64,000 bases of DNA from an uncultured Acidobacteriota bacterium (GTDB lineage Bacteria; Acidobacteriota; Thermoanaerobaculia; Gp7-AA8), in NCBI GenBank assembly GCA_963822445.1, contig CAWGHO010000002.1, positions 2,240,001 to 2,304,000 of the forward strand, given 5' to 3'. The notes beneath the pieces are model-generated. The model saw nothing but the letters and a program-made list of their open reading frames with translations, had not been told where the DNA came from and searched no databases. A program made the position numbers and the translations under genes. Positions 29,314-62,062 of the stretch are shown here, in pieces (position 1 is the first letter of the stretch; each line of letters opens with the position of its first letter).

Positions 29314-32310
29314 TCAGCGCTGGACTTTGCCGAGTTGCCGGTCGAGATACGCGGTGATCAGCTGCCGGACGACGTCGAGCGGTGGGATGTGTCCGGAATC
29401 GACGATCACGATCTCCTTCGGCTCCGGCATCAGCTCGTACAGCGGCAGGGCCTCGGTCTGCAGCGGATGGACCTCGTCCCAGCGGCCGTGAAGCATGAGC
29501 TTCGGCGCGTTCATGCGCGGTGCGAAATTCTTCCGGTTCGCTTTGGGATTCGTGTCTCTCGCCTCATCGGGAGGCATGCCCACGCCCATGAAGGTGACAC
29601 AGCGGTATCGATTCTCCAGCGCGGCCATGACGATGCCGAGATGGGCGCCCGCGCTGGGACCGAAGTAGGCGATGCGCTGCCTGTCGATCTCCGGCCGGGT
29701 CACGAGGTAGTCGACGCCGCGGCGGAAGTCGATCGTCTGCTCTTGCATGAAATCCGCGTACTCCTCGGACGCACCTGCAGGAAAGCCGACCCGGCCCGAC
29801 GGGCGGCCGATGTAGCCGCGCAACACCACGCCGAAGACGGCCCGTCCGCCGCGCAGGAAGGGCGTGAGCATCGCTTCCATCGCCGCGTCCAGCGATCGCC
29901 GTCCAACGGCAACGTCGGTTGCCGGAACGAAGTGGATCACCTGATACGGAGGCTTCGCATTTTTCGGCAGGTAGAGATGGGCGAAGGCGCGGCCTTGCGC
30001 GCCGTCAAACTCGATCTTCTGCATCGTCCACGACTCGCCCTCGCGCTTTTCGACGATGCGCGCGTTCAGCGGAGCGGGGGAGTAGTCGTAAAAGCGGCGG
30101 ATCTTCGTGAACTCCGCGTCGCTGACGGGATCGAGCTTGACCACGCTGTCGCTGCGCGAGATCGCGTAGCCGCCCTGATCGCCTTTTCCGCCGGCCGGCC
30201 GCGAGCAGCGGAAGCCGATCTGCGAGCTGCTGTGCATCGGCGGATACGAGCCGAAGTTGCCGAAGCTGTAGGTCGGCGAGTTGAAGTCGCCGCCGGTCAG
30301 CATCATGCCGTCGCCGTACTGATTGAGACACCACTCCGCAACGTTGCCGGCCATGTGATGCGCGCCGTACGCGCTCATGCCCGATGGCAGCGACTGCACG
30401 GGCATCGTGCCGCTGCCGCGGAAGTTCGCGCGGCTGGCGATGTCCGCGCCCGGCGGCGCGACGCCCCAGGGATACATCAGCCCGAACGCCGAGAAGGAGC
30501 CATCGCGCGCGGCCTTGTCCCATTCGAAGATCGTCGGCAGACGCTTGCCTCGAAACTCGGCGTACGCCGCCGCTTCGTACCAGCTCACGTCGGTGACCGG
30601 GTATTCGTCCCGACCCTCGGGATAGTTCTGATCCATCCACCGCCGCGGCGCCGGCATCCCGGATGCGTCCTTCAACTCGAGCATGGCCTCGTCGAAGGTC
30701 AGCGTCTTGCCGTCCTCGAGGAACGGATGCTTCCAGAGCTCGCGGCGTTCATAGCCGCCGGCGCGGATGAATTCGGCGAACTCGCGATTCGTGACCTCGA
30801 ACTGGTCGATGTAGAAATCGTCCAGCGTAACGGCTGCGTTCGTCGGACGGCTCCAAGCAGCGATGCGATAGCGGCCGCCTGCGACACGGACCATGCCTTT
30901 CGGCACGTCTTTCATGGGCGTCAGCTTCAGATCGAGCGGCACGGGACGCGGCGGGAGCCACGTCCATTCGAGCGGGATCGGTGAGAGCGCGATCGTGCGC
31001 GCGAGCGGCGCGAACCCTTCTTTTTCGACGCGAATGACGTAGTCGCCGAGGGCAATCGGGTGTTTGGCGAGCGGTGTCGTTCCGGCGAGTGTCCGCGCGG
31101 TCGTCGTGCCATTCGCACTGACCCGTTCGAGAAAGACCTGTGCTCCCGCGGGCTCGCTTTTCACATCGAGCGGCACGCTGATCGAGCCGCGAACTCGGGC
31201 GATGACGGGATCGTCGCCGAGGTCTTCATGCAGCGCATCGGCGAGATCCCACGCGGCGAAGTAGTTCCGTTCTTCAGCGAGCTTCTCGAGTTGCGGCAGC
31301 TTCGCGCGCGCCTCACGCACGGCACGCGCGCGATTCGCGTAAACGGATCCGATGGCGATCGCGGCGAGGATCGCCACGGCCACGGCGATCCACTTCCACG
31401 GCAGGCGCCGCGACCCGGACACCTTCTGCGTTACGACCTCGGTCGGCAGGTCGCCGGAACGAATCCGCTTCGTCTCATCGCGGGCCTGCTTGAGCGCCTC
31501 GGCCATCTCCCGCGCCGTGGGGTAACGCTCGTCGCGCTTTTTGGACAGCGCTTTCACGATGATCGCGCGAACACTCGGAGGCAGCGCCGCATCGAGCGCC
31601 GGCGGGTCCTCGGTGAGGATCGACGCGATCACTCCGCTCGGCGACGACGCTTCGAACGGCCGTCTGCCCGTGACCATCTCGTAAAGCACGACGCCGAGGC
31701 TGAAGACGTCGCTGCGCGCGTCGATGTCGTCCGTGCGCAGCTGCTCGGGCGACATGTATTGCATCGTTCCCATGACCAGGCCCGGCGCGGTGTGCACGAC
31801 CATCGTCGGCGTCTCGCTGCCTGCCGGTGGCGCGGTGAGCTTGGCCAGCCCGAAGTCGAGCACCTTCACGTAGCCATCGGGCCGGATCATCACGTTCTCC
31901 GGCTTGATGTCGCGGTGGATGATGCCGTGGGCATGCGCGCTGCCGAGTGCCGCGGCGATCTGGACGCCGAGCTCCAATGACTCGGCCAGCGTCAGAGGCT
32001 CGCCGCTCATCCGCGCGCGCAACGTTTCGCCCTCGACGTACTCCATGGCGATGAAGCGCACGCCGTTTTCCTCACCGACGTCGTACACATGCGCGACGTT
32101 CGGGTGATTGAGAGCGATGGCCGCGCGCGCTTCCTGGATGAAGCGGCGGATGCGATCGCCGTCATCATCGGGCGCGTCGGACAGAACTTTCAGCGCCACG
32201 GTGCGATCGAGCTCGACGTCGCGCGCGAGGTACACCTCGCCCATGCCACCCGCGCCGAGGGGAGCGGTGACCTCGTACCGCCGAACGCGCGTGCCGGAGG
32301 AGATCAGCAT
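29314..32310 (-). CDS. Ser/Thr kinase - TM - FGE/sulfatase-modifying domain - alpha/beta hydrolase
   Basis: GAGGMGEV, VALK, HRDIKPEN, DFG, MSPE; TM; EVTNREF, RLPTIFEW, MAGNVAEW, IGFRC; GPSAG..WDE..SGHI. Confidence 0.88.
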   Translation of the reverse strand: MLISSGTRVRRYEVTAPLGAGGMGEVYLARDVELDRTVALKVLSDAPDDDGDRIRRFIQEARAAIALNHPNVAHVYDVGEENGVRFIAMEYVEGETLRARMSGEPLTLAESLELGVQIAAALGSAHAHGIIHRDIKPENVMIRPDGYVKVLDFGLAKLTAPPAGSETPTMVVHTAPGLVMGTMQYMSPEQLRTDDIDARSDVFSLGVVLYEMVTGRRPFEASSPSGVIASILTEDPPALDAALPPSVRAIIVKALSKKRDERYPTAREMAEALKQARDETKRIRSGDLPTEVVTQKVSGSRRLPWKWIAVAVAILAAIAIGSVYANRARAVREARAKLPQLEKLAEERNYFAAWDLADALHEDLGDDPVIARVRGSISVPLDVKSEPAGAQVFLERVSANGTTTARTLAGTTPLAKHPIALGDYVIRVEKEGFAPLARTIALSPIPLEWTWLPPRPVPLDLKLTPMKDVPKGMVRVAGGRYRIAAWSRPTNAAVTLDDFYIDQFEVTNREFAEFIRAGGYERRELWKHPFLEDGKTLTFDEAMLELKDASGMPAPRRWMDQNYPEGRDEYPVTDVSWYEAAAYAEFRGKRLPTIFEWDKAARDGSFSAFGLMYPWGVAPPGADIASRANFRGSGTMPVQSLPSGMSAYGAHHMAGNVAEWCLNQYGDGMMLTGGDFNSPTYSFGNFGSYPPMHSSSQIGFRCSRPAGGKGDQGGYAISRSDSVVKLDPVSDAEFTKIRRFYDYSPAPLNARIVEKREGESWTMQKIEFDGAQGRAFAHLYLPKNAKPPYQVIHFVPATDVAVGRRSLDAAMEAMLTPFLRGGRAVFGVVLRGYIGRPSGRVGFPAGASEEYADFMQEQTIDFRRGVDYLVTRPEIDRQRIAYFGPSAGAHLGIVMAALENRYRCVTFMGVGMPPDEARDTNPKANRKNFAPRMNAPKLMLHGRWDEVHPLQTEALPLYELMPEPKEIVIVDSGHIPPLDVVRQLITAYLDRQLGKVQR

Positions 32311-32401
32311 TTGTGGCTGAAAGACGAATTCTACCGCGACGCAATCAACGAAAAAGCGGTATCGTTCCGCGTCCTTGATCCCGTCCACATCCGTTCCAGT
32401 G

Positions 32402-33229
32402 ATGCTCAGCCGCGACAACGGCGAGGGATTTCCGGCGGTCTCGTTCGGCACGCGCGTTCCCGGCGCGCTCTACGTTCCGCTGCGCCAGCTCGGCCCTGAT
32501 TCGCTGATGGAGTTGTGGCCGCAGGCCGCCGGCGAGTTGCTTTTCGGTGCGGTGAGTCTCGAGGAAAGCGATTCGATCGAGTCGCTGACGCGCGCCGCGT
32601 ACGCGCGAATCATCGAGGAAGTGCGCGCCGCCGGGTATCCGTACTTCTTGCGGATGTGGAATCACGTCGGCGGCATCAACGAGCTCGAGGAAGGCGGCGA
32701 GCGCTATCAGCTCTTCTGCGCCGGCCGTCACGACGCGTTCGTCTCCGCCGGCTATCACCACGGCGCGGACCTTCCCGCGGCGAGCGCCGTCGGGTCGCTG
32801 GGCCGCGGGCTGGTGATCTACTTTCTCGCCGCGCGCGAGCCCGGCGTGCAGGTCGAGAATCCGCGGCAGATCAGCGCTTACGACTATCCGCCGCAGTACG
32901 GACCGAAGAGCCCTTCATTCTCGCGGCTCACGGTGTGGGGGGACACGGTGTTCGTCTCCGGCACGTCGAGCGTCATCGGCCACGCGACCGTTCATCACGG
33001 CGACGTGGCCGCGCAACTCGAAGAAACGCTGCGCAACATGGACACCGTCCTGGCGCGCTGCGGGAAGACGTTGAACGACGTCGTCGCCGCGAAGACGTAC
33101 ATTCGCCACGCCGCCGACTACGACCTCGTGGCCCGCCATCTGCAGCGGGTTTTCCCCGCGAATCTCTATCTCGAGGCGGACATATGCCGCAGGGACCTGC
33201 TGATCGAAATCGAAGCCGTGGCGCGCTGA
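32402..33229 (+). CDS. FkbO/Hyg5/XanB2-family chorismatase
   Basis: LRMWNHVGGIN, ERYQLFCAGR, PAASAVG, ENPRQISAY.YP..YGPKSPSFSR, VSGTSS, DICRRDLLIEIE. Confidence 0.82.
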   Translation: MLSRDNGEGFPAVSFGTRVPGALYVPLRQLGPDSLMELWPQAAGELLFGAVSLEESDSIESLTRAAYARIIEEVRAAGYPYFLRMWNHVGGINELEEGGERYQLFCAGRHDAFVSAGYHHGADLPAASAVGSLGRGLVIYFLAAREPGVQVENPRQISAYDYPPQYGPKSPSFSRLTVWGDTVFVSGTSSVIGHATVHHGDVAAQLEETLRNMDTVLARCGKTLNDVVAAKTYIRHAADYDLVARHLQRVFPANLYLEADICRRDLLIEIEAVAR

Positions 33230-44870: not shown

Positions 44871-46393
44871 TCATGGGGCCGGCGTTTTGGCCCAGCACAT
44901 GATGACCTGCCGTGTCGCAGTCACGCCGCCGCCTCCGCGGCTCCCATGGACGAGCGCCGGCTCGTAGCCATTCGGACAGAGCAGCCGATCGGTGATCGGA
45001 TTCTTCTTGTCCCCGTTGTCGCTGTACATCCCTCCGAAGAGATACGGCGGCTGCTTTCCCGCCTCGCGCGGCCGCCAGCAGTAGTACAGATCGTGTGCGT
45101 TTTTCACCTGCGCCGCTCTGAATCCGAGCGGGCAACCCGCGCCGCCGATCGAGTTGTAAATCCAGCGGTCGCCGGAGGGCTCGGCGTCGTTGGTCTTGCC
45201 GTACATGCCGCCGAAATCGGCGACGCCGAAGTCAGCGTCCTTCTCGGATCCGCCGCCGATGCGGCCGCAGTAGTAAACCGGCCAGTCGACGTTGTGGGTC
45301 CCTTTGATCTCGTACGCTGTGTAGCCGGCCGGGCAGCCCTGGCCGCCGGTGACGGCGTTGTTGAAGGATCCGCCTTCGCCGATGCCGAACATCCCGCCGA
45401 AGTCCATGCGGCCCTCGCGCGCGGTCAAAGGCGGCTGATTGTTCTTGAGGATGTCGAGCGTTTTCGCCCAGGTGTCGGCGATGGCCAGAGTCCCGACCCA
45501 GTCTTTGTCGACTTCCGGCGCGCGCGACTTGCGGACGCCATCGACGTACGGCTGACGATTCCCTTCGCATCGGGCCAGCGCTTTTCCTTCGTCGTCATCA
45601 GCCTGGGAGCCGGGCATGCGCTTCTGCACCGCGGAATCGCTGAATCCGGTCTCGTAAGTGGTGATCAGCGCCCAGGGCGCTCCGTGCACCCGTTTTTGAT
45701 TGACGTGGCAGTCGGAGATCTGGCCGAGGCGCGCATACATCGCGGAGTCGCGGCGGCGGTGCATGGTCTTGCGCACGTGGTCGAGCGACGACTCGAGGTG
45801 GGCGATCAGATCGGGCCGGATCGATTTGTCATGCTCGGGGTGCACTTTCCGGCGCAACTCGAGCGTGTTCGCTTTGAGCTGAGCCGACGCCAGGAACAGG
45901 GGGAGTCCGGGATCGACGTATTCCGCTTTACCGGCAGCGCCGGTGCGGCGATCACTTCATAGACTTTCTGGAGTGTGGAGTTCCGCTCGATGCGGTCCTC
46001 GAGCGTGACCGGATCGGACCCATTCTGCCACTGGCGCTCATACTCCTGGAGCGCGGTCGCGGCCGCGGTCAGAGTCGTTTCGTCGTTCTCCATGACGTTC
46101 TTCACCAACTCTTTGCGCACGTTCGCGCTGATGTCGGCGAGGAGCTTCTCGATGTCGATGGTCTTGGACGGAAAGAGGCCAGCTCTTTTGAGCACGATGC
46201 CGGCGACGGACTTGAGCAGCCCTCCGGCCATGTCCCCGACGACGCTCGTTTCGCCGCGTAACGGCTTGCGCGGTGCCGGCTTTTTCTTCTTCGACGTCGA
46301 TTGGGATGGCGGTTTCGTGTCGGCCGAGAGAGGCAGGGTCGTGAACGAGAGAGAAAACACCAGACCGAGGGCAATCGCTGCGCGAGCTCGCAT
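44871..46393 (-). CDS. Secreted protein: helical Cry-domain-I-like N-half + three FGGM..CP.G repeats (frameshift near 45948)
   Basis: Signal peptide MRARAAIALGLVFSLSFTTLPLSA; a one-base shift joins ORF 45806..46558 to the frame of 44871..45857; SD GAAGGA. Confidence 0.7.
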
Positions 46394-46482
46394 CGTTGTT
46401 CCTTCCTTCGATTGTGTTTTGTGGTGGGACCGGAACGAAGTATCGCCGTCCGTGCGGCCGAATGCAACGGTCGCTGACAATC

Positions 46483-46824
46483 TTAGGGGGTCAGACCCAG
46501 GATGCCGAGATCGAACGCGATCCCGATAAGACCGATTGCCGAAACCAGAACCCACCACTTCGCCTTCGGCGACGCATCATCCCCACCGATTGTCCGGACG
46601 AGAACCGCGACGAACACGAGTCCTGCAATGATCGTGAGGCCCCTGCCAACGACCCATTGCGTTCGCAGGCGGCCCGCCGCGGATCCCCATGCCGAACCGT
46701 GCGAAGTCAGATAAGCCAGATGAACACCGAAGCACAGGACGAAGCCGATCGCCGCGGCAATTAGACTGGCGACAATCACCGCGCCCGGAAATAGCGAACC
46801 GCGGAGACGCGGCGCATCAATCAT
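46483..46824 (-). CDS. Small membrane protein
   Basis: Three hydrophobic segments. Confidence 0.5.
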   Translation of the reverse strand: MIDAPRLRGSLFPGAVIVASLIAAAIGFVLCFGVHLAYLTSHGSAWGSAAGRLRTQWVVGRGLTIIAGLVFVAVLVRTIGGDDASPKAKWWVLVSAIGLIGIAFDLGILGLTP

Positions 46825-46845
46825 CTGTGGATGGTACTCGTGCTG

Positions 46846-47328
46846 CTACGCGTTGGACGGCGCCGCACGCACCGCTGCAGGCAATGCAGGCCGTCTGGTG
46901 AGGATCGGTTGCCATTCGCGGAAGTCTGCTGATGCGTTCCAAGGCCAGATGCCACTCGTCGTCGGGTAGACCATCTGTAGGACGCGGAAGGACGGACCGT
47001 CGTACAGCCACAGGTTCCATCCGAAGTATTCGGGATAGAACGACTCCTCGACCTGCTCGAAGCCCACCAGGAATCCTTCCAGAAAGTCACCGTAGGTGTG
47101 ACCTGCCGTGAAGACCTCGCCCTCCTGAATTCTGCGGTTGTATTCGTTCACCACGAAGTGAGCAATGGGCTGTTCGAGACCGACGACTACCACCTCGGGC
47201 GCGCCAGACGACCGCTCAATGCCGACGGAGTACGAAAACGGAGGCAACTCGTCCTCCGCCGCCACGTGGATTACGTGACAGCCATACTTGTCGATGTCGG
47301 CGAGGGCTTTTTGTTCTCCGCGGTTCAT
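46846..47328 (-). CDS. DUF4262 family protein
   Basis: IDKYGCHVIHV, PFSYSVG, PEVVVVGL, LQMVYP..G.WPW. Confidence 0.8.
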   Translation of the reverse strand: MNRGEQKALADIDKYGCHVIHVAAEDELPPFSYSVGIERSSGAPEVVVVGLEQPIAHFVVNEYNRRIQEGEVFTAGHTYGDFLEGFLVGFEQVEESFYPEYFGWNLWLYDGPSFRVLQMVYPTTSGIWPWNASADFREWQPILTRRPALPAAVRAAPSNA

Positions 47329-47459
47329 CGTAGGTCCATCCAACTGGCGAATATGGGGTAGTAGTTCCAGAGGGAGTCCTGTACGAGCTCGGGGTCGACT
47401 AGCTCACCGCACGTGCTGCCTGGACGCAGCCCAGGCGATAAGCCGTAGTGCCGCGACCC

Positions 47460-47843
47460 TCAATCGACACGCGCCCGATTCGCCGCGCGAATCGTGGAAA
47501 TCAGCGCAACAATGCAAACGATCCACCCCACGCCCAGCACCGCTGCAATCCACAGATGAGGCAGCCCGCTCGGGTCGGACATTTCAATGTTGCGGATGTG
47601 CCCGAAAACGCTCGCGTAGCCTAGTCCGCAGGTAAACGCCCAGGCCGCGGCAAGAACGATTGGGCCCGTGGCCCGGTCCTTCGAACATCGCCACGCGCCG
47701 TAAAGCAGAAACGCGCCGATCAAATAGTCGTCGAGAAACGCAGGCGGATATTCGTGCCACAGTGGCCACCGTCTGGCTGTTTCGGCTAGAGGAAGCAATA
47801 CACCGATGACGATCGCCAGCCGGCGGCTGCGCGATAAGGTCAC
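47460..47843 (-). CDS. Hypothetical 4-TM membrane protein
   Basis: GTG overlaps mmsA stop; ETARRW..DDY motif, hydrophobic helices. Confidence 0.6.
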   Translation of the reverse strand: MTLSRSRRLAIVIGVLLPLAETARRWPLWHEYPPAFLDDYLIGAFLLYGAWRCSKDRATGPIVLAAAWAFTCGLGYASVFGHIRNIEMSDPSGLPHLWIAAVLGVGWIVCIVALISTIRAANRARVD

Positions 47844-49324
47844 GACATCCAGTTCACGCCCGCCTCTTTGTTCCACTTCGTGGTCATCTTCTTCGACTTC
47901 GTCCAGAGCTCGATCGAGCCGCGGCCGGTGATGTCGCCGACGCCGAACTTCGAATCGTTCCAGCCGCCGAAGCCGAACGGCTCGCGCGGCACGGGCACGC
48001 CGACGTTCACACCGACCATCCCCGCGCTGGCCTTCTCCATCACGTACCGGGCAACGCCGCCGCTCTCCGTGAACACCGACGCGGCATTGCCGTACGGCGA
48101 TTTCTGCTGGACCTGCAGCGCCTCTTCGACGTCGTTCGCGCGCACGATGACCATCACCGGCCCGAAGATCTCTTCCTGGGCGATGCGCATGTCCGGCGTG
48201 ACGTGATCGATCAGCGTCGGGCCGACGAAATAGCCGTTCTCGCGGCCGGGCACTGAATATCCACGCCCGTCGACGAGCACCTTCGCCCCCGCTTCCTCGG
48301 CTTCAGTGATGTATTTCTCGATGCGCTCCTTGGCCTGCTTCGAGATGACCGGTCCGATGTGAGTTCCGGGGACCATCGAGCGGACGATGTTCACCATGCG
48401 CTCGATGATGTGGTCGGACTTGCCGACGGCCATCATCACCGACGCGGCCATGCAGCGCTGTCCCGCGCAACCGGACATCGACGCGACGACATTGTTCGAA
48501 GTCATGTCCGGCTCGGCGTCCGGCATCACGATGAGGTGGTTCTTCGCGCCGCCGAGGGCCAGGACGCGCTTGAGATTGTGCGTGCCGCGGCGGTAGACGA
48601 TTTTCGCGACGGTTGTCGAGCCGACGAAGCTGATCGTGTCGATGAAGGGGTTGTCGCAGATGGCTTCGACGGTCTGCTGCCCGCCGTGCACGACGTTGAG
48701 CACGCCGTCGGGCAGGCCGGCTTCCTTCAGCAACTCGGCGATGCGGCCGGCACTGAGCGGCACCTGCTCGGAGGGCTTGAGGATCATGCAGTTGCCGAGT
48801 CCGATGGCATTGGGGATGGTCCAGTTGGCGACCATATTCGGGAAGTTGAAGGGCGTGATCGACGCGACGACGCCGACCGGATAGCGCTCCACGCGGCATT
48901 CCACGCCGCGCGACACTTCCAGCACTTCGCCAGGCACGATCTGCGGCAAGGAGCAGGCGAACTCGCAGAGCTCCGCGGATTTCAGGACCTCCGCCGCGGC
49001 CTCGTTGCGGATCTTGCCGTTCTCCTCGCTGACCAGCGCCGCCAGCTCATCGATGTTTTTCTCGAGCAGCGTCTTGTATCGATAGAAGACCTGCACCCGC
49101 TCCTTGATCGGCGTGGCCGCCCATCCCGGCGCGGCTTTGCGGGCGGCGTCGACGGCCTGGTCCACTTCGCTCGGACCGCACAGCGGAACGCGCGAGATGA
49201 CGCTGCCGTCGGCGGGATTGGTGACGTCGAGATACTCGCGGGCCTGCGAGTCGACATACGTGCCGCCGATGTAGTTGCGGACGTCGGGATATTTCGTGGA
49301 AACAGCGGCTTCAGCGATGCTCAT
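47840..49324 (-). CDS. mmsA: CoA-acylating (methyl)malonate-semialdehyde dehydrogenase
   Basis: ITPFNFP, LKPSE, SFVGST, LGGAKNH, GCAGQRCMA, EEIFGPV, GVPVPREPFGFGGW. Confidence 0.92.
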   Translation of the reverse strand: MSIAEAAVSTKYPDVRNYIGGTYVDSQAREYLDVTNPADGSVISRVPLCGPSEVDQAVDAARKAAPGWAATPIKERVQVFYRYKTLLEKNIDELAALVSEENGKIRNEAAAEVLKSAELCEFACSLPQIVPGEVLEVSRGVECRVERYPVGVVASITPFNFPNMVANWTIPNAIGLGNCMILKPSEQVPLSAGRIAELLKEAGLPDGVLNVVHGGQQTVEAICDNPFIDTISFVGSTTVAKIVYRRGTHNLKRVLALGGAKNHLIVMPDAEPDMTSNNVVASMSGCAGQRCMAASVMMAVGKSDHIIERMVNIVRSMVPGTHIGPVISKQAKERIEKYITEAEEAGAKVLVDGRGYSVPGRENGYFVGPTLIDHVTPDMRIAQEEIFGPVMVIVRANDVEEALQVQQKSPYGNAASVFTESGGVARYVMEKASAGMVGVNVGVPVPREPFGFGGWNDSKFGVGDITGRGSIELWTKSKKMTTKWNKEAGVNWMS

Positions 49325-57115: not shown

Positions 57116-58336
57116 TCAGAACTTCTTCGGGAAGCGGATGCTGCTGTCGTTGGTGCGGTTGTCGGTCGTCGACGCGTAGACGTACGCGCTGCCGGCCTGG
57201 ATCTGCACGATGATGAAGCCGCCCGGCGCGGTCGCGCCGCCATCCAGGAACTGCGAGAGCGTGACCTGCTCGAAGTAATTCGCCGGATACGAGCGGGTCA
57301 CGTTCAGGTTCGAGACCTGGATGCCGTTCGCGTCGTACTCGATGACGCCGACGGTCACCCCTTCGTCGAGCGTCCGGAGCCCGATGTTCATGCGGAAGTT
57401 GGTGAGGTCCGACGGAATCGTGAACGAGCCGCGGTCGAAGCGGTGCATGGCGTTGACCGGCGTCATCACCTCTTCTGTGAATCCGGACGTGCCGCCCGCG
57501 CCTTCATCGTTGTAAATCCGCGCGGTCACATCGGGCGGATAGCTGGTGAAGGGGACGATGTCCATGCTCCCGATGCCGCTGGTGCTCATCGAGGCGATGA
57601 CGTCATCGAGTGAGGTGGTCTGCGCCGGCTGCAGGCTGTACGTGTATTTCGGATCGGTCGAGGCCGCGCTGGCGCCGGCCGGATGAAAGACCAGCTGTCC
57701 GGTGATCGTGGAAGTGCCGCGATTGGTGAGCTGCACCGCCGTGCGGAACAACGATCCGAAACTGCCCTGCGTCGAGCCGACGACCGGCAGAGTGCCATGC
57801 ACCGGATTCGCTTCCGAGGAGGCGCGGACGCTCATCACCAGGCCGTTCACGAACTCGACGTTCGAGACCGTGCCGCTGTCCGGATCGGAAGGCACGGCGC
57901 CGACGAGGTTGGAGCGGTCCGTCCGCGCATTCGCTACGCCGCCGCAGGTAAGCGGCTCCAGCTGGGTGATGCCGATGTAATCGCCAGGCTGCACGTTGAC
58001 CGCGGGCGAGAGCGGGATATCGATGATCCCCGCAGTCGAATCGAACGGTCCGCGCGTCGCGATGACCTCCAGACCGGTGTCGGCCGGCCGGAAGAATTTC
58101 ACCTCGAAGGAGTCCTCACATCCAGCGGGGGGGCCAGCCGTCCAGACCAGCGTGGCCCGGGTGAGGTTGCCGATGCCGAAGGCGGGACGGGAGAAGTCGA
58201 TCAGGGTGAGCGGCGCCAGCGTCCCTCCGCGATTGGCGACGGTTGCGGCGCCGGGTTGGAGCTCTCCGACGGTGACGGCGAAAAGAGGGGCGGCGAACAG
58301 GGCGACGAGGGATATGTAAATAAGTTTGCGGAGCAT
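57116..58336 (-). CDS. Secreted beta-rich hypothetical protein
   Basis: Signal peptide; LPVVGSTQGSFGSLFRTAVQL..FRMNIG..YASTTDNRTNDS. Confidence 0.7.
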   Translation of the reverse strand: MLRKLIYISLVALFAAPLFAVTVGELQPGAATVANRGGTLAPLTLIDFSRPAFGIGNLTRATLVWTAGPPAGCEDSFEVKFFRPADTGLEVIATRGPFDSTAGIIDIPLSPAVNVQPGDYIGITQLEPLTCGGVANARTDRSNLVGAVPSDPDSGTVSNVEFVNGLVMSVRASSEANPVHGTLPVVGSTQGSFGSLFRTAVQLTNRGTSTITGQLVFHPAGASAASTDPKYTYSLQPAQTTSLDDVIASMSTSGIGSMDIVPFTSYPPDVTARIYNDEGAGGTSGFTEEVMTPVNAMHRFDRGSFTIPSDLTNFRMNIGLRTLDEGVTVGVIEYDANGIQVSNLNVTRSYPANYFEQVTLSQFLDGGATAPGGFIIVQIQAGSAYVYASTTDNRTNDSSIRFPKKF

Positions 58337-58457
58337 GCCCTCCGCGCGGTGCATCAGCCGTACCCGGGCTCCTGCCAGGCTGAGCAGCGAAGATCACAAG
58401 CGCGGGATAATTGCCGCCCTTACGCTCTGCGGCCAAATAAACGTACGGAGGCGGCTG

Positions 58458-60659
58458 ATGTCGAAAACGGACACGACGGTCGACAAACTGGTCACGATGA
58501 TCAAGGACGGCGAGCTGCGCCTTCCGGAAATGCAGCGGCGGTACGTGTGGCCTGCGACCCGCGTGCGCGACCTCCTTGATTCGCTTTATCGCGGATACCC
58601 GTCCGGAACCATTCTGGTTTGGGAGACCGAGCAGGAGATGCCGAGCCGCGACCTTGCCATCGAACAGGGCACGAGCCCGTTCAAAGGTCACAAGCTCCTG
58701 CTCGACGGCCAGCAGCGTCTCACGTCGTTATCGGCCATCCTCAGGGGGAAACCGGTGGTCGTGCGCGGTCGCCGGAAGCCGATCGAGATTCTCTTCAATC
58801 TCGATCACCCGGAGAAGCCGGCGGAATGGACCGAGGTCAATGACGAGGCGGAAGACGCGGATGACACGGACGTCGATCTCGAGGAGGAGGAAGGTCCCAA
58901 CATTCAGGAGCGGTTGCGTCAGCGCACATTCGTCGTCGCGAGCAAGCAGATGCAGGCCAATCCGGTGTGGGTGCCGGTGACCAGCCTGTTTCGCGACGAG
59001 GTGACCGACGGGCAGATTCTCAAGCCGCTCGTTGGCTCGTTCGACGACCCGAACTACGAGAAATACACGAAGCGCCTTCAACGCGTGAGAAGGATCCGTG
59101 ACTACCAATACGTCATGCACGTTCTGGATAAGAGCCTTTCGTATGAGGAGGTCGCCGAAATTTTCGTTCGTGTGAATTCGCTCGGCGTGAAGTTGCGCGG
59201 ATCGGACCTCGCACTCGCTCAGATCACGTCGCGTTGGAGAGACTCGCTGAAGCTCTTCGAGGAGTTCCAAGAGGAATGTGAGGAGAGCTGGTTCACCCTC
59301 GACCTCGGACTGCTCGTGCGCGCGCTCGTGGTATTCGCCACCAATCAGAGCCGGTTCAATTCCGTATCGACGATCCCCGTCGAGCAGCTGAAGAAGGGGT
59401 GGGAGAAGGCCAAATCGGGCATTCGATTCGCGGTCAACTTCCTGCGGGCCAACGCCGGTGTCGAAGATGAGAGTCTTCTTTCCTCCCCGCTGTTCATCAT
59501 CACGATCGGGTACTACGCGCTTCAAACCGAAATGCGGCTGGCGCCGGGCGATGTCTCGGCTCTCAAACGCTGGCTATATCTCGGCAACGTATTCGGGCAT
59601 TACAGCGGGTCGTCGGAGACGACGCTCGACGGCGACCTGAATCTGATCAGCCGCGGCGGTGGCCCGATGGCGTTGCTCGACACGCTGAAACAACAGGTCG
59701 GCCGCTTCGAGGTTCACCCAGGTGATCTGGCCGGTCGTGGTCAGAGAAGCGCGCTGTTCTCACTCGCGTACCTCGCCCTGAAAGCAAGAGGCGCAAGAGA
59801 CTGGCACACGCATCTCGGGCTCTCTCTTACCCACCAGGGCCGGTTTCACTTCATCGAGCACCATCACATCTTTCCCAAGGCCATTCTCAAGAAGCACGGA
59901 GCATCGAAGTCGGACACGAACGAAATTGCGAACATGGCCTTCGTCTCCGGCGGCACGAACCGGAACCTCTGGACCCGGCCGCCCGAGCACACTCTCGCCG
60001 AACTACAGCGAACACAGGGTGCGGAGGCCTTCGCCGCTCACTGTCTGCCCTTGGACGAATCGCTGTGGAAGGTCGAAAACTACTCGTCCTTCCTCGAGTA
60101 CCGCCGAGCGCAGCTGGCGAAAGCCATCAACGAGTTCATCGCCAGCGATGGTGGCGGCACCAGCACGGTCGATCTCGAGTCGCTCATCGCCGGCGGCGAG
60201 AATGATCGCGTCGAGTTCAAGGCGTCGCTACGATGGGATTTTCGCGAAGGCCAGGTGAACAAGGGTCGCGAGCTCGACGTCGCAAAGGCGATTGCGGCGT
60301 TTCTCAATTCGGAAGGTGGAACGCTTCTGATCGGCGTTCAGGACGACGGGGAGATCGTCGGCCTGGAGCGCGATTACAAAACTCTCGGCAAGAGGCCCGA
60401 TCGCGACGGATATCAACAGGCTCTCGTCAATGTGATCTCCACAGCCTTGGGGAAGGCCGCGTGTGCAACATTGCGCATCTCCGTGCAGCCAATCGGCGGT
60501 AGAGAGATTTGTGTCGTCCATGCGGCGCCGTCGACGAGCCCGGTCTACCTAACCGAAGGCGGGCAGTCGAAGTTTTTCGTGCGGACAGGCAATACCAGTC
60601 AGGACCTCGGGACTCGCGACGCTGTTGCGTACATCGCTCAGCATTGGCGAGCCTGGTGA
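58458..60659 (+). CDS. GmrSD-like DUF262 + HNH (DUF1524-like) fused to Schlafen AlbA_2 domain
   Basis: LPEMQRRYVW, DSLYRGYPSG, LLDGQQRLTSL, IFVRVNS; EHHHIFPK..IANMAFVS..TN; GENDRVEFK..AAFLNSEGGTLLIGVQDDG. Confidence 0.88.
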   Translation: MSKTDTTVDKLVTMIKDGELRLPEMQRRYVWPATRVRDLLDSLYRGYPSGTILVWETEQEMPSRDLAIEQGTSPFKGHKLLLDGQQRLTSLSAILRGKPVVVRGRRKPIEILFNLDHPEKPAEWTEVNDEAEDADDTDVDLEEEEGPNIQERLRQRTFVVASKQMQANPVWVPVTSLFRDEVTDGQILKPLVGSFDDPNYEKYTKRLQRVRRIRDYQYVMHVLDKSLSYEEVAEIFVRVNSLGVKLRGSDLALAQITSRWRDSLKLFEEFQEECEESWFTLDLGLLVRALVVFATNQSRFNSVSTIPVEQLKKGWEKAKSGIRFAVNFLRANAGVEDESLLSSPLFIITIGYYALQTEMRLAPGDVSALKRWLYLGNVFGHYSGSSETTLDGDLNLISRGGGPMALLDTLKQQVGRFEVHPGDLAGRGQRSALFSLAYLALKARGARDWHTHLGLSLTHQGRFHFIEHHHIFPKAILKKHGASKSDTNEIANMAFVSGGTNRNLWTRPPEHTLAELQRTQGAEAFAAHCLPLDESLWKVENYSSFLEYRRAQLAKAINEFIASDGGGTSTVDLESLIAGGENDRVEFKASLRWDFREGQVNKGRELDVAKAIAAFLNSEGGTLLIGVQDDGEIVGLERDYKTLGKRPDRDGYQQALVNVISTALGKAACATLRISVQPIGGREICVVHAAPSTSPVYLTEGGQSKFFVRTGNTSQDLGTRDAVAYIAQHWRAW

Positions 60660-60688: not shown

Positions 60689-62062
60689 ATGACCACCGGC
60701 CGCAACGACCCGTGCCCGTGCGGCAGCGGACGGAAATACAAGAAGTGCCATCTGGCCGCGGACAGCGCGCCGCGCGAAGCCGCACGGCTCGACACTCCCT
60801 CCTCCCTGCACGCGCTCGACAACCGGATCGTCCAGGACATCGTCGATTTCATGGCCCGCCGATTCCCGAACGAGCTCGACGACGAAACGGAGATTCTCGA
60901 ATCGCACCCGTTGATGGACATACAGTTCGCCGGGCACTGGCTCGCCTGGATCGCGCACTTCGAGGGGCGACCGGCGGTGGAGTGGTATCTGGAGAATGCC
61001 GGCTGGTCGCTTTCGCGTGGTGCCACGGAATGGATCGCCGCGCAACGCGAGGCATGGCTCTCGATCTGGCAGGTCGTGGAGGTCGAGCGAGGGCAGTCGC
61101 TGGTTCTACGCGATCTCCTCACCGGCGAGCAGCGCACGGTGCACGAGATCGAGGGGTCACGAGCCATCGACGTGAACCTCCTGCTGCTTTGTCGCATCGT
61201 CGACCACGCCGGCGTGTCGACGATGTGCGGCGTCCATCCGCAACCTCTCCGACCGGGGCAGGGACTCATGGTCATCGAACGAATGAAAAAGGCGCTGCGA
61301 AGAAAAACGGCCGTTCCACCGGAGCGGCTTCGCGAGCTCCGGATCGCTCGAAGGCTGCTGGAGGAATGGTCGACGGCGATCGATTCGCTGAGCATCCCGC
61401 CCACGCTCGTCAACAACGACGGCGATCCGATTCTGCAGACCAGCGATCGATGGAGGATCGATGCCGGTTCGCGCGATGCGATCGCCACCGTCATCGAGTC
61501 GATGGAAGGAAGCGTCGCCGAGGGAAAAGGCGAGTTCGCCATCGTTCGCGAGAGCGATAGCACGATGATCGGCTTCATCCGCCTCGCCGGGTCGGCGATG
61601 GTCCTCGAAACGAACTCGATCGCCCGAGCGGATCTGTTGAGAGATCGTGTCGAGACAGCCTGCGCGGGTCTGCTCGGCCCACATGTCCGATCGCATTCCG
61701 ATCCGACGGCGCGGTTCCAGGAAGCCGACTCCACGGAAACCGACGACTCCATGTTGCCACCCGAGCCGGCGGCCACGGCTGAGGAAAACGCGGTCATCCG
61801 CGCGATGAAGGAGCGTCACTACGCCGCCTGGCTCGATGAACCCCTTCCGGCGCTCGACGGGAAGACGCCGCGAGAGACGGCTCGCACTGCAACCGGCCGC
61901 GAACGGGTGAAGTTGCTTCTTCAGGGGATCGAGGACATCGAGCGCGACGTCGAAGAGGAGGCGCGGTTCGACGTGAGCCGGCTCTGGCGTGAACTGGAGC
62001 TGAAGCGAAAGGTGTCCGAAAGCGAACACACCGTTCGAAAGCGAACACCTGGCGACTCGTAA
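60689..62062 (+). CDS. SEC-C motif protein with C-terminal Xre/MbcA/ParS-like domain
   Basis: GRNDPCPCGSGRKYKKCH; C-terminal WLDEPLPALDGKTPRE. Confidence 0.8.
   Translation: MTTGRNDPCPCGSGRKYKKCHLAADSAPREAARLDTPSSLHALDNRIVQDIVDFMARRFPNELDDETEILESHPLMDIQFAGHWLAWIAHFEGRPAVEWYLENAGWSLSRGATEWIAAQREAWLSIWQVVEVERGQSLVLRDLLTGEQRTVHEIEGSRAIDVNLLLLCRIVDHAGVSTMCGVHPQPLRPGQGLMVIERMKKALRRKTAVPPERLRELRIARRLLEEWSTAIDSLSIPPTLVNNDGDPILQTSDRWRIDAGSRDAIATVIESMEGSVAEGKGEFAIVRESDSTMIGFIRLAGSAMVLETNSIARADLLRDRVETACAGLLGPHVRSHSDPTARFQEADSTETDDSMLPPEPAATAEENAVIRAMKERHYAAWLDEPLPALDGKTPRETARTATGRERVKLLLQGIEDIERDVEEEARFDVSRLWRELELKRKVSESEHTVRKRTPGDS

Follow-up and report, generated by a model that had tools for sequence, protein, structure and literature searches.

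In a survey of 5,930 prokaryotic Schlafen proteins, 55 architectures were distinguished, among which the combination of DUF262 with a Schlafen domain (DUF262.pSlfn, class pSlfn7) accounted for 109 members, or 1.8% (Taboada et al., bioRxiv 2025; Nat Microbiol 2026, PMC13056530; statements on this work refer to its accessible portions). One pSlfn7 member, EcoSlfn7 from E. coli UC4224, protected E. coli and decreased the plating efficiency of phage T7 538-fold, and the domains fused to prokaryotic Schlafens were interpreted by the authors as sensors (PMC13056530). The pSlfn7 rows of its tables hold a value of 0.76, presumably the defence-associated fraction, in an excerpt that lacks the column header (PMC13056530). 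The other main point of comparison is BrxU, which cleaves modified DNA, changes from dimer to monomer with ATP and requires S42, DGQQR and D474/H475 (Picton et al., 2021, PMC8565348, accessible part). The gene described here is located at 58458-60659 (+) of a 64,000-nt stretch of contig CAWGHO010000002.1 from an uncultured Acidobacteriota bacterium; this whole stretch is referred to as the window, and positions are given in its numbering. Its product, P0001, joins a BrxU-type GmrSD core to a single Schlafen lobe and is an HNH-bearing long variant of the published pSlfn7 class with a core that is covered by PADLOC.

Consistent with the initial annotation, which had described a single uninterrupted open reading frame (ORF), positions 58458-60659 gave a stop-free translation of 733 amino acids (aa). 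The motifs that it had named (QR, DGQQR, F..N, HNH, GGGTS, and GENDRVEFK) were all recovered in their places, the F..N motif of DUF262 corresponding to F236..N240. The longest frame that contains this ORF starts at a TTG at 58326. However, ATG 58458 is the likely start, because a GGAGG sequence is located 6 nt upstream and homologues begin at the same Met, the equivalent residue being the start in 33 aligned homologues in an alignment of fused relatives. Since the protein terminates straight after the Schlafen lobe, it lacks an ATPase or helix-turn-helix tail, as had also been noted from the ORF. The gene and its parts are as follows.

58458..60659, + strand: whole gene P0001, 733 aa plus stop; BrxU-type GmrSD core and Schlafen lobe.
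58447..58451, + strand: Shine-Dalgarno-like GGAGG, 6 nt 5' of ATG 58458.
58485..59222, + strand: DUF262/GmrSD_N (ParB-like NTPase), aa 10-255; Pfam PF03235.
58533-58538, + strand: QR motif, Q26-R27, inside DUF262.
58704-58718, + strand: DGQQR motif, D83-R87, inside DUF262, as is S42.
58824..58898, + strand: acidic, length-variable insert in DUF262, aa 123-147; predicted to be disordered (pLDDT < 50) and gapped in the alignment.
59223..59777, + strand: helical domain in the middle of the GmrSD core (linker domain), aa 256-440; helices in the model, aligned to BrxU 209-432 and within the superposition of Z 21.7 described below.
59778..60143, + strand: DUF1524-like HNH (His-Me finger) domain, aa 441-562.
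59862-59876, + strand: HHIFP, H469-P473, the HNH motif, with N492 and N501 downstream.
60144..60170, + strand: flexible linker with GGGTS (aa 565-569); pLDDT < 50 at 565-569.
60171..60656, + strand: single Schlafen/AlbA_2 lobe, aa 572-733; Pfam PF04326, profile, and fold.
60198-60221, + strand: E581-x4-E586-x-K588 (ENDRVEFK), the motif of the Schlafen lobe, which also holds D629.

Both ends of the protein were identified by Pfam models, with scores well above the respective cut-offs: GmrSD_N (PF03235) matched aa 10-255 (E 1.2e-29, 104 bits vs 33.2) and SLFN_AlbA_2 (PF04326) matched aa 581-716 (E 1.7e-17, 64.5 bits vs 25.3). An NCBIfam scan of P0001 yielded no family match. A single PADLOC model, HEC-05 (PDLC04151), covered nearly the entire core, with aa 3-561 aligned to positions 23-593 of its 600-position profile (E 3.5e-46); BrxU and the representative of HEC-05 share 99.2% identity (Payne et al., preprint, 10.1101/2024.01.29.577857, accessible part). 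An AlphaFold2 model of P0001, made from a 34-sequence alignment, had a mean pLDDT (predicted local distance difference test) of 81.8 and a pTM (predicted template modelling score) of 0.70, with low-confidence stretches at 123-147 (the acidic insert), 242-246, 460-462, and 565-569 (the linker). Its best PDB match in Foldseek was BrxU (7p9k, E 5.8e-15), with SspE and DndI next in rank. In VIA-align, model residues 1-566 superposed on BrxU 1-582 with a Z of 21.7 and 492 aligned residues; the root-mean-square deviation of 16.9 reflected a differing orientation of the domains. Residues 432-549 of the model showed a weak match to Cas9 HNH domains (Z ~4, VIA-align). The GmrSD_C model of Pfam (PF07510) matched four relatives with the same core, P0170, P0205, P0232, and P0270, at the segment aligned with HHIFP, which reads EHDHIFPR, EFHHIFPK, EYHHIFPK, and ELHHIFPK, respectively. 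The HNH assignment is based on the full-length HEC-05 match, the BrxU fold, the PF07510 matches in these four relatives and the conservation of the motif. As judged from sequence and model, aa 1 to ~562 are a complete BrxU-clade GmrSD enzyme in which the catalytic His is preceded by H, where D/E is usual.

A profile of the family matched the catalytic C-lobe of pig SLFN11 (residues 176-276, E 4.3e-6), with ESxxxEFK placed on ESQSIEFK and GVDD on GVDD of SLFN11, and also matched SLFN14, 13, 12, and 5 and the CRISPR-associated Schlafen CbCash. In fold comparisons (VIA), tail residues 567-733 aligned with DIP2311 (3lmm, Z 14.4), the hSAMD9 'DBD' (7ksp, Z 12.5), the rSAMD9 tRNase (9o0d, Z 11.8), and the C-lobes of SLFN14, SLFN11, and SLFN13 (Z about 9-10). 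The tail is a single lobe, unlike the two-lobe horseshoe of mammalian SLFNs. As in AlbA_2 domains, it combines a fold match to SLFN and SAMD9 lobes with E-x4-(E/D)-x-K and a downstream Asp (D629). The lobe is probably a catalytic RNase effector. A homodimer prediction for two copies of the lobe (aa 566-733) gave a score of 0.02 against a mark of 0.42 and favoured neither outcome. Pfam, HEC-05 and fold matches together confirmed the proposal of the initial annotation that a GmrSD-like DUF262 domain, an HNH nuclease and a Schlafen domain occur in one polypeptide.

P0001 shares with BrxU (PDB 7P9K) a DUF262 domain with DGQQR and S42, a helical middle domain and a DUF1524 HNH domain, although identity in the fold alignments was only 17-18%. 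BrxU residues 6-61 aligned to the DUF262 region of P0001, in which S42 of BrxU (RLFDS) has its counterpart in S42 of DLLDS; D474/H475 of BrxU (DHIYP) correspond to H469/H470 (HHIFP). P0001 differs from BrxU by its 162-aa Schlafen lobe and by the acidic, disordered insert of ~25 aa in DUF262. By analogy, the conservation of S42 hints at a BrxU-like, ATP-driven dimer cycle, which is suggestive only.

With DUF262 and a Schlafen domain in one protein, P0001 belongs to pSlfn7, a class that is defined by domain composition. Like P0001, EcoSlfn7 is the product of a single gene with an N-terminal DUF262 and a C-terminal Schlafen lobe carrying E-x4-E-x-K. It is encoded in a mobile hotspot, a P2-like prophage, where it has the replication genes on one side and the portal gene on the other (NZ_CP104472.1 4519514-4521283). 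As read from its sequence, however, EcoSlfn7 differs from P0001 in having 589 aa and matches to GmrSD_N and SLFN_AlbA_2 only, without [DEH]H..P, GmrSD_C or HEC-05 match; its motifs are DGLQR and ELANYELK, as compared with DGQQR and ENDRVEFK in P0001. Its DUF262 domain matched PADLOC NsnA/PD-T4-2_A (aa 6-184) rather than HEC-05, and identity to P0001 was 28% over 90 aa only. Identity, HNH domain and PADLOC models all differ, which places the two proteins apart within the class. All 13 Enterobacterales entries of pSlfn7 have 588-600 aa (PMC13056530); long forms are probably included in the class, since one pSlfn7 row has 712 aa (PMC13056530). The accessible main text of Taboada et al. does not mention HNH, GmrSD or ParB (0 occurrences in the preprint), and in the literature searched the three-domain form of BrxU-type core, HNH and Schlafen was neither tested nor singled out. 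The initial annotation did not know of the fusion as a characterised system and had named membership of a catalogued system as a finding that would speak against it. This view no longer holds for the DUF262-Schlafen combination, a named class of 109 proteins of which one is protective (PMC13056530), nor for the HEC-05 core; within the literature searched, it still holds for the long HNH form.

Other described systems resemble P0001 in part. A Swt1-like HEPN domain fused to ParB(DUF262) and HNH (VNG7073 type) was tabulated without function by Anantharaman et al. (2013, PMC3710099, accessible part). This type and PD-T4-2 (a DUF262 gene with HEPN) share with P0001 a GmrSD-type chassis joined to an RNase of conflict systems, the RNase being Schlafen in P0001 and HEPN in the other two. 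DUF262 without DUF1524 occurs in PD-T4-2, Menshen, and Dazbog (Mariano and Blower, 2023, accessible part). A tRNA endonuclease activity is in print for RorSlfn5 (PMC13056530), and Cash is a single-lobe Schlafen that cuts T-loops and anticodon loops of tRNA with E17/D22/K24, residues that fit the E-x4-(E/D)-x-K pattern of P0001 (PMC13462974, accessible part). Cash becomes active only once cA4 has rearranged its closed dodecamer, which yields filaments with the Schlafen domains in pairs (PMC13462974). RorSlfn5 (Ig-like sensor) and Cash (Csx15 sensor, cA4) have a single Schlafen effector lobe behind a sensor, like P0001; unlike in these proteins, the putative sensor of P0001 is a ParB-like NTPase that comes together with a DNase. 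SLFN-pAgo is a further prokaryotic Schlafen effector. In the accessible part of a 2026 survey of BREX, Schlafen RNases are called 'backup suicidal effectors' and GmrSD is noted in BREX loci.

The fusion of DUF262, HNH and Schlafen domains is a large, conserved and mainly metagenomic family that is often located in restriction-modification (RM) or DISARM-like islands. A word-indexed search yielded 7330 matches at E ≤ 1e-3 among 8000 candidates scored. Both Pfam domains were present in all 119 relatives listed (56-75% identity), most of which cover the query fully; their source names, where given, were only 'hypothetical', 'DUF262' or 'GmrSD ... domain-containing'. An exhaustive HMMER search of 1.84 billion representatives of 50%-identity clusters retrieved 14495 proteins at E ≤ 1e-3, of which 917 at E ≤ 1e-30. 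The best 150 of these were sorted by tail with hidden Markov models (HMMs) from the alignment made in this analysis. Those with a full core had a Schlafen tail (37), no tail (47) or another tail of at least 60 aa (13); the corresponding numbers for proteins with a partial core were 17, 31, and 5. In the fetched DNA, unfused relatives reached a stop codon in 8 of the 13 loci from genomes and in 21 of the 49 from metagenomes. They have 564-588 aa, are 50-62% identical over residues 1-561 and terminate within ~5-25 aa of the GGGTS linker point of P0001. Complete fused genes numbered 3 in the genome loci and 14 in the metagenome loci; one copy (L003) was truncated and another (L032) frame-broken.

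Viral contigs contained one relative only, which is unfused and 45% identical; for the long form they gave no sign of phage carriage, though one fused homologue (L030) adjoins terminase genes. Among plasmids, 90 records matched, with query coverage of 80% or more in 4 of them. Three plasmid relatives (H3-H5, from the halophilic archaeon DL31, Haloquadratum walsbyi, and Sinorhizobium meliloti) show 98-99% coverage at 29-32% identity, and one of these is annotated 'DUF2081', the name of the HNH part in the 2013 HEPN paper (PMC3710099, accessible part). In one GmrSD-Slfn fusion, P0258 (1194 aa), two more domains are added, RAMA (restriction-enzyme adenine-methylase-associated) and DUF4268.

Tails on the same core were not limited to Schlafen. 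HEPN_Swt1 of Pfam matched P0148 (E 5.3e-10) and P0205 (E 1.3e-4), and an RNxxxH motif was present in the tails of five same-core relatives. Eight other tails of same-core relatives had no Pfam match: five in one clade with a support of 100 (P0227, P0236, P0246, P0256, P0263), plus P0223, P0242, and P0270, all with C-terminal extensions of 130-235 aa, which may be further effector tails. In a FastTree phylogeny of the core region (98 rows; 42 of 95 inner branches with support ≥ 95), the Slfn label required about 11 changes, with at least 10 of these forced by well-supported branches. Proteins with Schlafen and HEPN-like tails were sisters at support 99-100 in three groups (P0125/P0131, P0133/P0170, P0124/P0132/P0148), and the two kinds of RNase tail are thus interchangeable on this core.

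In 34 close fused homologues (56-75% identical to P0001), Q26, R27, S42, D83-R87, H469, N492, E581, E586, and K588 were invariant (34/34), while H470, F472, P473, and N501 were at least 90% conserved. A single chain thus carries three conserved catalytic centres. A more diverse fused set of 38 rows, consisting of 37 representatives of 50%-identity clusters and the query, separated the two nucleases. DGQQR and each of E581, E586, and K588 were kept in all 38 rows and D629 in 36. The HNH histidine (position 470) was kept in 29, with 8 substitutions and a gap in 1 fragment. The same histidine was retained by 46 of 47 relatives without a tail, by all 5 with a HEPN-like tail and by all 8 with another tail, so that it was lost in 8 of 37 fused proteins vs 1 of 60 without Slfn (Fisher p = 0.0017, a naive value that is not corrected for relatedness). 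By eye, the losses fall in at least 5 places on the core tree. The initial annotation had proposed that absence of conservation of the AlbA_2 catalytic residues would argue against its reading; instead, E581, E586, and K588 are invariant in the diverse fused set. Its view of the RNase as a mere backup is not supported, since the decaying part is the HNH histidine. This pattern in the sequences suggests that NTPase switch and RNase would form an indispensable pair and that the HNH would be dispensable once an RNase is attached. As far as the searches of the literature show, the exchanges between Slfn and HEPN, the invariant RNase residues and the decaying HNH are new, with a modest scope and a quickly made tree.

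A decaying HNH would also fit a mechanism like that of EcoSlfn7, in which the core is only an NTPase sensor or scaffold, the HNH leaves DNA uncut in vivo and defence depends on the Schlafen RNase alone (pure abortive infection). EcoSlfn7 protects without an HNH, the histidine is replaced in 8 of the 37 scorable fused representatives, and the interpretation of fused domains as sensors (PMC13056530) points in the same direction. However, such a mechanism is unlikely for P0001, since the HNH of its close family is evidently under constraint, as seen in the 34 sequences from H469 and N492 (invariant) and from H470, F472, P473, and N501, and unfused relatives with 56-62% identity exist as complete, presumably DNA-cutting enzymes of 565-590 aa.

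Conversely, P0001 might be a plain type IV restriction enzyme, with a Schlafen lobe that is a non-catalytic nucleic-acid binder and helps the HNH to locate or retain (modified) DNA without cutting RNA. The completeness of the GmrSD core and the conservation of its HNH in the close family are compatible with this explanation. Moreover, among the best fold matches of the lobe are hSAMD9, crystallised together with DNA as its DNA-binding domain (7ksp, Z 12.5), and structures of SLFN5 that bear the title 'DNA/RNA binding protein'. The same SAMD9 domain has, however, also been deposited as a tRNase (9o0d), and conservation of E-x4-E-x-K in 38/38 and D629 in 36/38 diverse fused rows is hard to explain without catalysis. 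In addition, a HEPN RNase with RNxxxH occupies the same position in sister lineages, and 8 fused lineages drop the HNH histidine yet keep the lobe residues. Restriction alone is therefore still less probable than the sole-RNase mechanism, and markedly so compared with the preferred reading set out below.

Neighbours of fused homologues were scanned at 14 loci, covering 20 of 44 listed ORFs in five loci and all 64 ORFs in nine. Defence-type neighbours were found at 8 of the 14:

L002: SF1 helicase, HsdM, HsdS, Abi_C.
L004: Eco57I/MmeI methylase, helicases, MZB/DUF1998 (DISARM-like).
L025: helicase; Eco57I-type methylase with a terminal Schlafen lobe of its own.
L027: HsdR, integrase, Toprim.
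L028: XhoI, D12 methylase, ParB_N, PRTase-CE, TIR-TPR.
L029: MmeI-like methylase, SMC-like ATPase, DUF4062.
L030: D12 methylase, terminase.
L031: AbiEii.

L024 had integrases only, and L001, L003, L007, L033, and L043 had no defence-type neighbours among the scanned ORFs. The location of relatives in RM or DISARM-like loci agrees with the account of GmrSD-like genes by Payne et al. (preprint, accessible part); embedding of the HEC-05 type was found for L002, L004, L025, and L029 and was absent in the window. This family context supports well the anti-phage role that had been proposed for the gene. In L025, the methylase is a 1305-aa Eco57I/MmeI-type methyltransferase (L025:1530-5444, +) with a Schlafen/AlbA_2 end (E 1.1e-16) in a DISARM-like cluster, so that this island contains two Schlafen-tailed proteins, the methyltransferase and the GmrSD-Slfn homologue.

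At its own locus, the gene is flanked on one side by an ECF sigma/FecR/TonB-receptor cluster and a secreted 412-aa protein and on the other by an HlyD/ABC pair. In agreement with the earlier remark that no methyltransferase is located nearby, RM methyltransferase models of PADLOC matched none of 47 window ORFs at E ≤ 1e-6. G+C content (GC) was 58-62% at the gene vs 65-68% in its flanks, and GC at third codon positions (GC3) was 0.76 vs 0.81-0.92 in flanking genes. An orthologue was absent from all 24 same-genus genomes (71-100% complete), which contained only distant DUF262 or Slfn fragments. The closest relatives were found in other phyla, in metagenome-assembled genomes labelled Gaiellales, Rokuibacteriota, Limisphaerales, and Chloroflexota. 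On the sequence evidence of GC, GC3 and absence from the genus, all signs of recent acquisition, the gene is a horizontally acquired accessory gene. A scan around the gene revealed no sigma-70-like promoter site and, as flanking repeats, only short imperfect ones; 5 terminator-like sites were seen vs 2.9 expected, none of them between the nuclease gene and the downstream gene. A search of sequencing runs listed no RNA run with the gene; the only run listed was of DNA, and its share of words was 0.06.

The downstream gene begins 30 nt past the stop codon of the nuclease gene:

60689..62062, + strand: SEC-C gene, 457 aa; SEC-C zinc motif at the N terminus, Xre/MbcA/ParS antitoxin toxin-binding domain (Pfam, E 2.8e-7) at the C terminus.

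It has the same GC3 as the nuclease gene (0.76 each), and no RES or ART toxin gene adjoins it. Homologues were found in 0 of 63 related GmrSD loci. Within the genus, full-length homologues occurred in 3 of 24 genomes, all without the nuclease gene (G017, G021, and G002, the last flagged as unpublished); other matches consisted of the 20-residue SEC-C motif alone. The SEC-C gene was consequently rejected as a conserved partner and, in view of its lack of co-occurrence and its own patchy distribution, it is not counted in the system. A toxin-antitoxin or addiction module, with a nuclease toxin restrained by the SEC-C/Xre-MbcA-ParS protein, would fit the 30-nt gap without terminator-like site, the 'antitoxin' domain and the shared GC3, but is very improbable in view of the missing co-occurrence in the related loci, the presence of the neighbour alone in same-genus genomes, and a family that is otherwise single-gene or within RM-type islands.

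The gene is very probably an anti-phage defence gene. In the preferred reading, towards which the balance of the evidence tips to some extent, it is a stand-alone, horizontally acquired defence gene that is switched by its NTPase, with the Schlafen RNase as its principal effector rather than as a backup. The DUF262 NTPase would sense a phage cue, which by analogy with BrxU could be modified phage DNA together with NTP; modified DNA as the trigger is, however, given somewhat less than an even chance. As a sensor and switch like those of BrxU and SspE, DUF262 would then run through a dimer/monomer (or higher oligomer) cycle. This cycle may license the HNH to cut foreign DNA, and the same cycle may pair or unmask Schlafen lobes, upon which tRNA or other RNA would be cut and translation would stop (abortive infection). 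Trigger, RNA target and coupling via the oligomeric state are all proposed here by analogy.

Several observations weigh against this preferred reading. The window as such is no defence island: within ~25 kb of the gene, the only PADLOC matches were to generic kinase or ABC models, and those across 47 window ORFs (E ≤ 1e-6) were to generic kinase, ABC, subtilase and transporter models. The HNH motif of P0001 reads HH-I-F-P, while D/E-H is the usual form, and the Pfam model for DUF1524/GmrSD_C (PF07510) gave no match to P0001 at E ≤ 0.1; of the Pfam models proposed in the initial annotation, those for DUF262 and AlbA_2 thus matched and that for DUF1524 did not. Deep branches of the core FastTree were weak, with 37 of 95 inner branches unresolved. 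EluSlfn7, the second pSlfn7 tested, does not belong to the two systems for which protection is reported in the accessible portions of PMC13056530. For P0001 and its close relatives, the reading rests on sequence, model and analogy. Phage T7 has unmodified DNA. EcoSlfn7 says little on modification sensing in P0001, because it is distant, has no HNH and another DUF262 type, and acts best on T7.

Three further loci were recorded in the same genome. A second Schlafen gene (L016, G000:C3:341680-345090) encodes a fusion of a receiver domain (Response_reg) with Schlafen of 293 aa, which is 38% identical to the P0001 lobe and has Response_reg-TIR proteins (338 and 365 aa) on both sides, so that L016 looks like a cluster of phospho-relay-controlled immune effectors. 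In the window, 29317-32469 (-) encodes a 1051-aa Ser/Thr kinase with PEGA and FGE-sulfatase domains, which matched many PADLOC PD-T4-6 models (best E 3.3e-95), probably via its generic kinase domain. A second low-GC stretch (0.60-0.62, GC3 0.53-0.74) at ~45800-47900 contains small ORFs, including a DUF4262 protein at 46849-47343 (-), and may be another foreign insert.

Since this kind of fusion was catalogued in print in 2025-26, it is real yet only moderately new. For annotation, it implies that HMMs of the PADLOC type would tag such genes as HEC-05 or GmrSD and miss the RNase. In organisms that range from bacteria to humans, Schlafen tRNases act as antiviral effectors. The present family is a tractable single-gene case, with the well-understood NTPase/dimer switch of BrxU, a Schlafen lobe and a DNase; because all of these are on one chain, it can be asked directly whether recognition of phage DNA leads to RNA cleavage and which nuclease protects. 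The comparative results predict which effector matters, in view of the invariant RNase residues, the decaying HNH and the exchange of Slfn and HEPN between sisters. A broader interpretation, for now a doubtful one, is that the BrxU-type DUF262 core could be a general sensor chassis gating swappable RNase tails, the Schlafen branch of which, although filed as type IV 'restriction enzymes', would defend by RNA cleavage triggered by foreign (possibly modified) DNA, with the HNH as a secondary activity. With the same reserve, its tails would comprise Schlafen, HEPN and several unannotated ones of 130-235 aa, and its HNH would have been lost repeatedly. If true, this chassis would for the first time connect the sensing of modified DNA with a Schlafen tRNase, and would be a bacterial parallel to nucleic-acid-activated SLFN11 and SAMD9.

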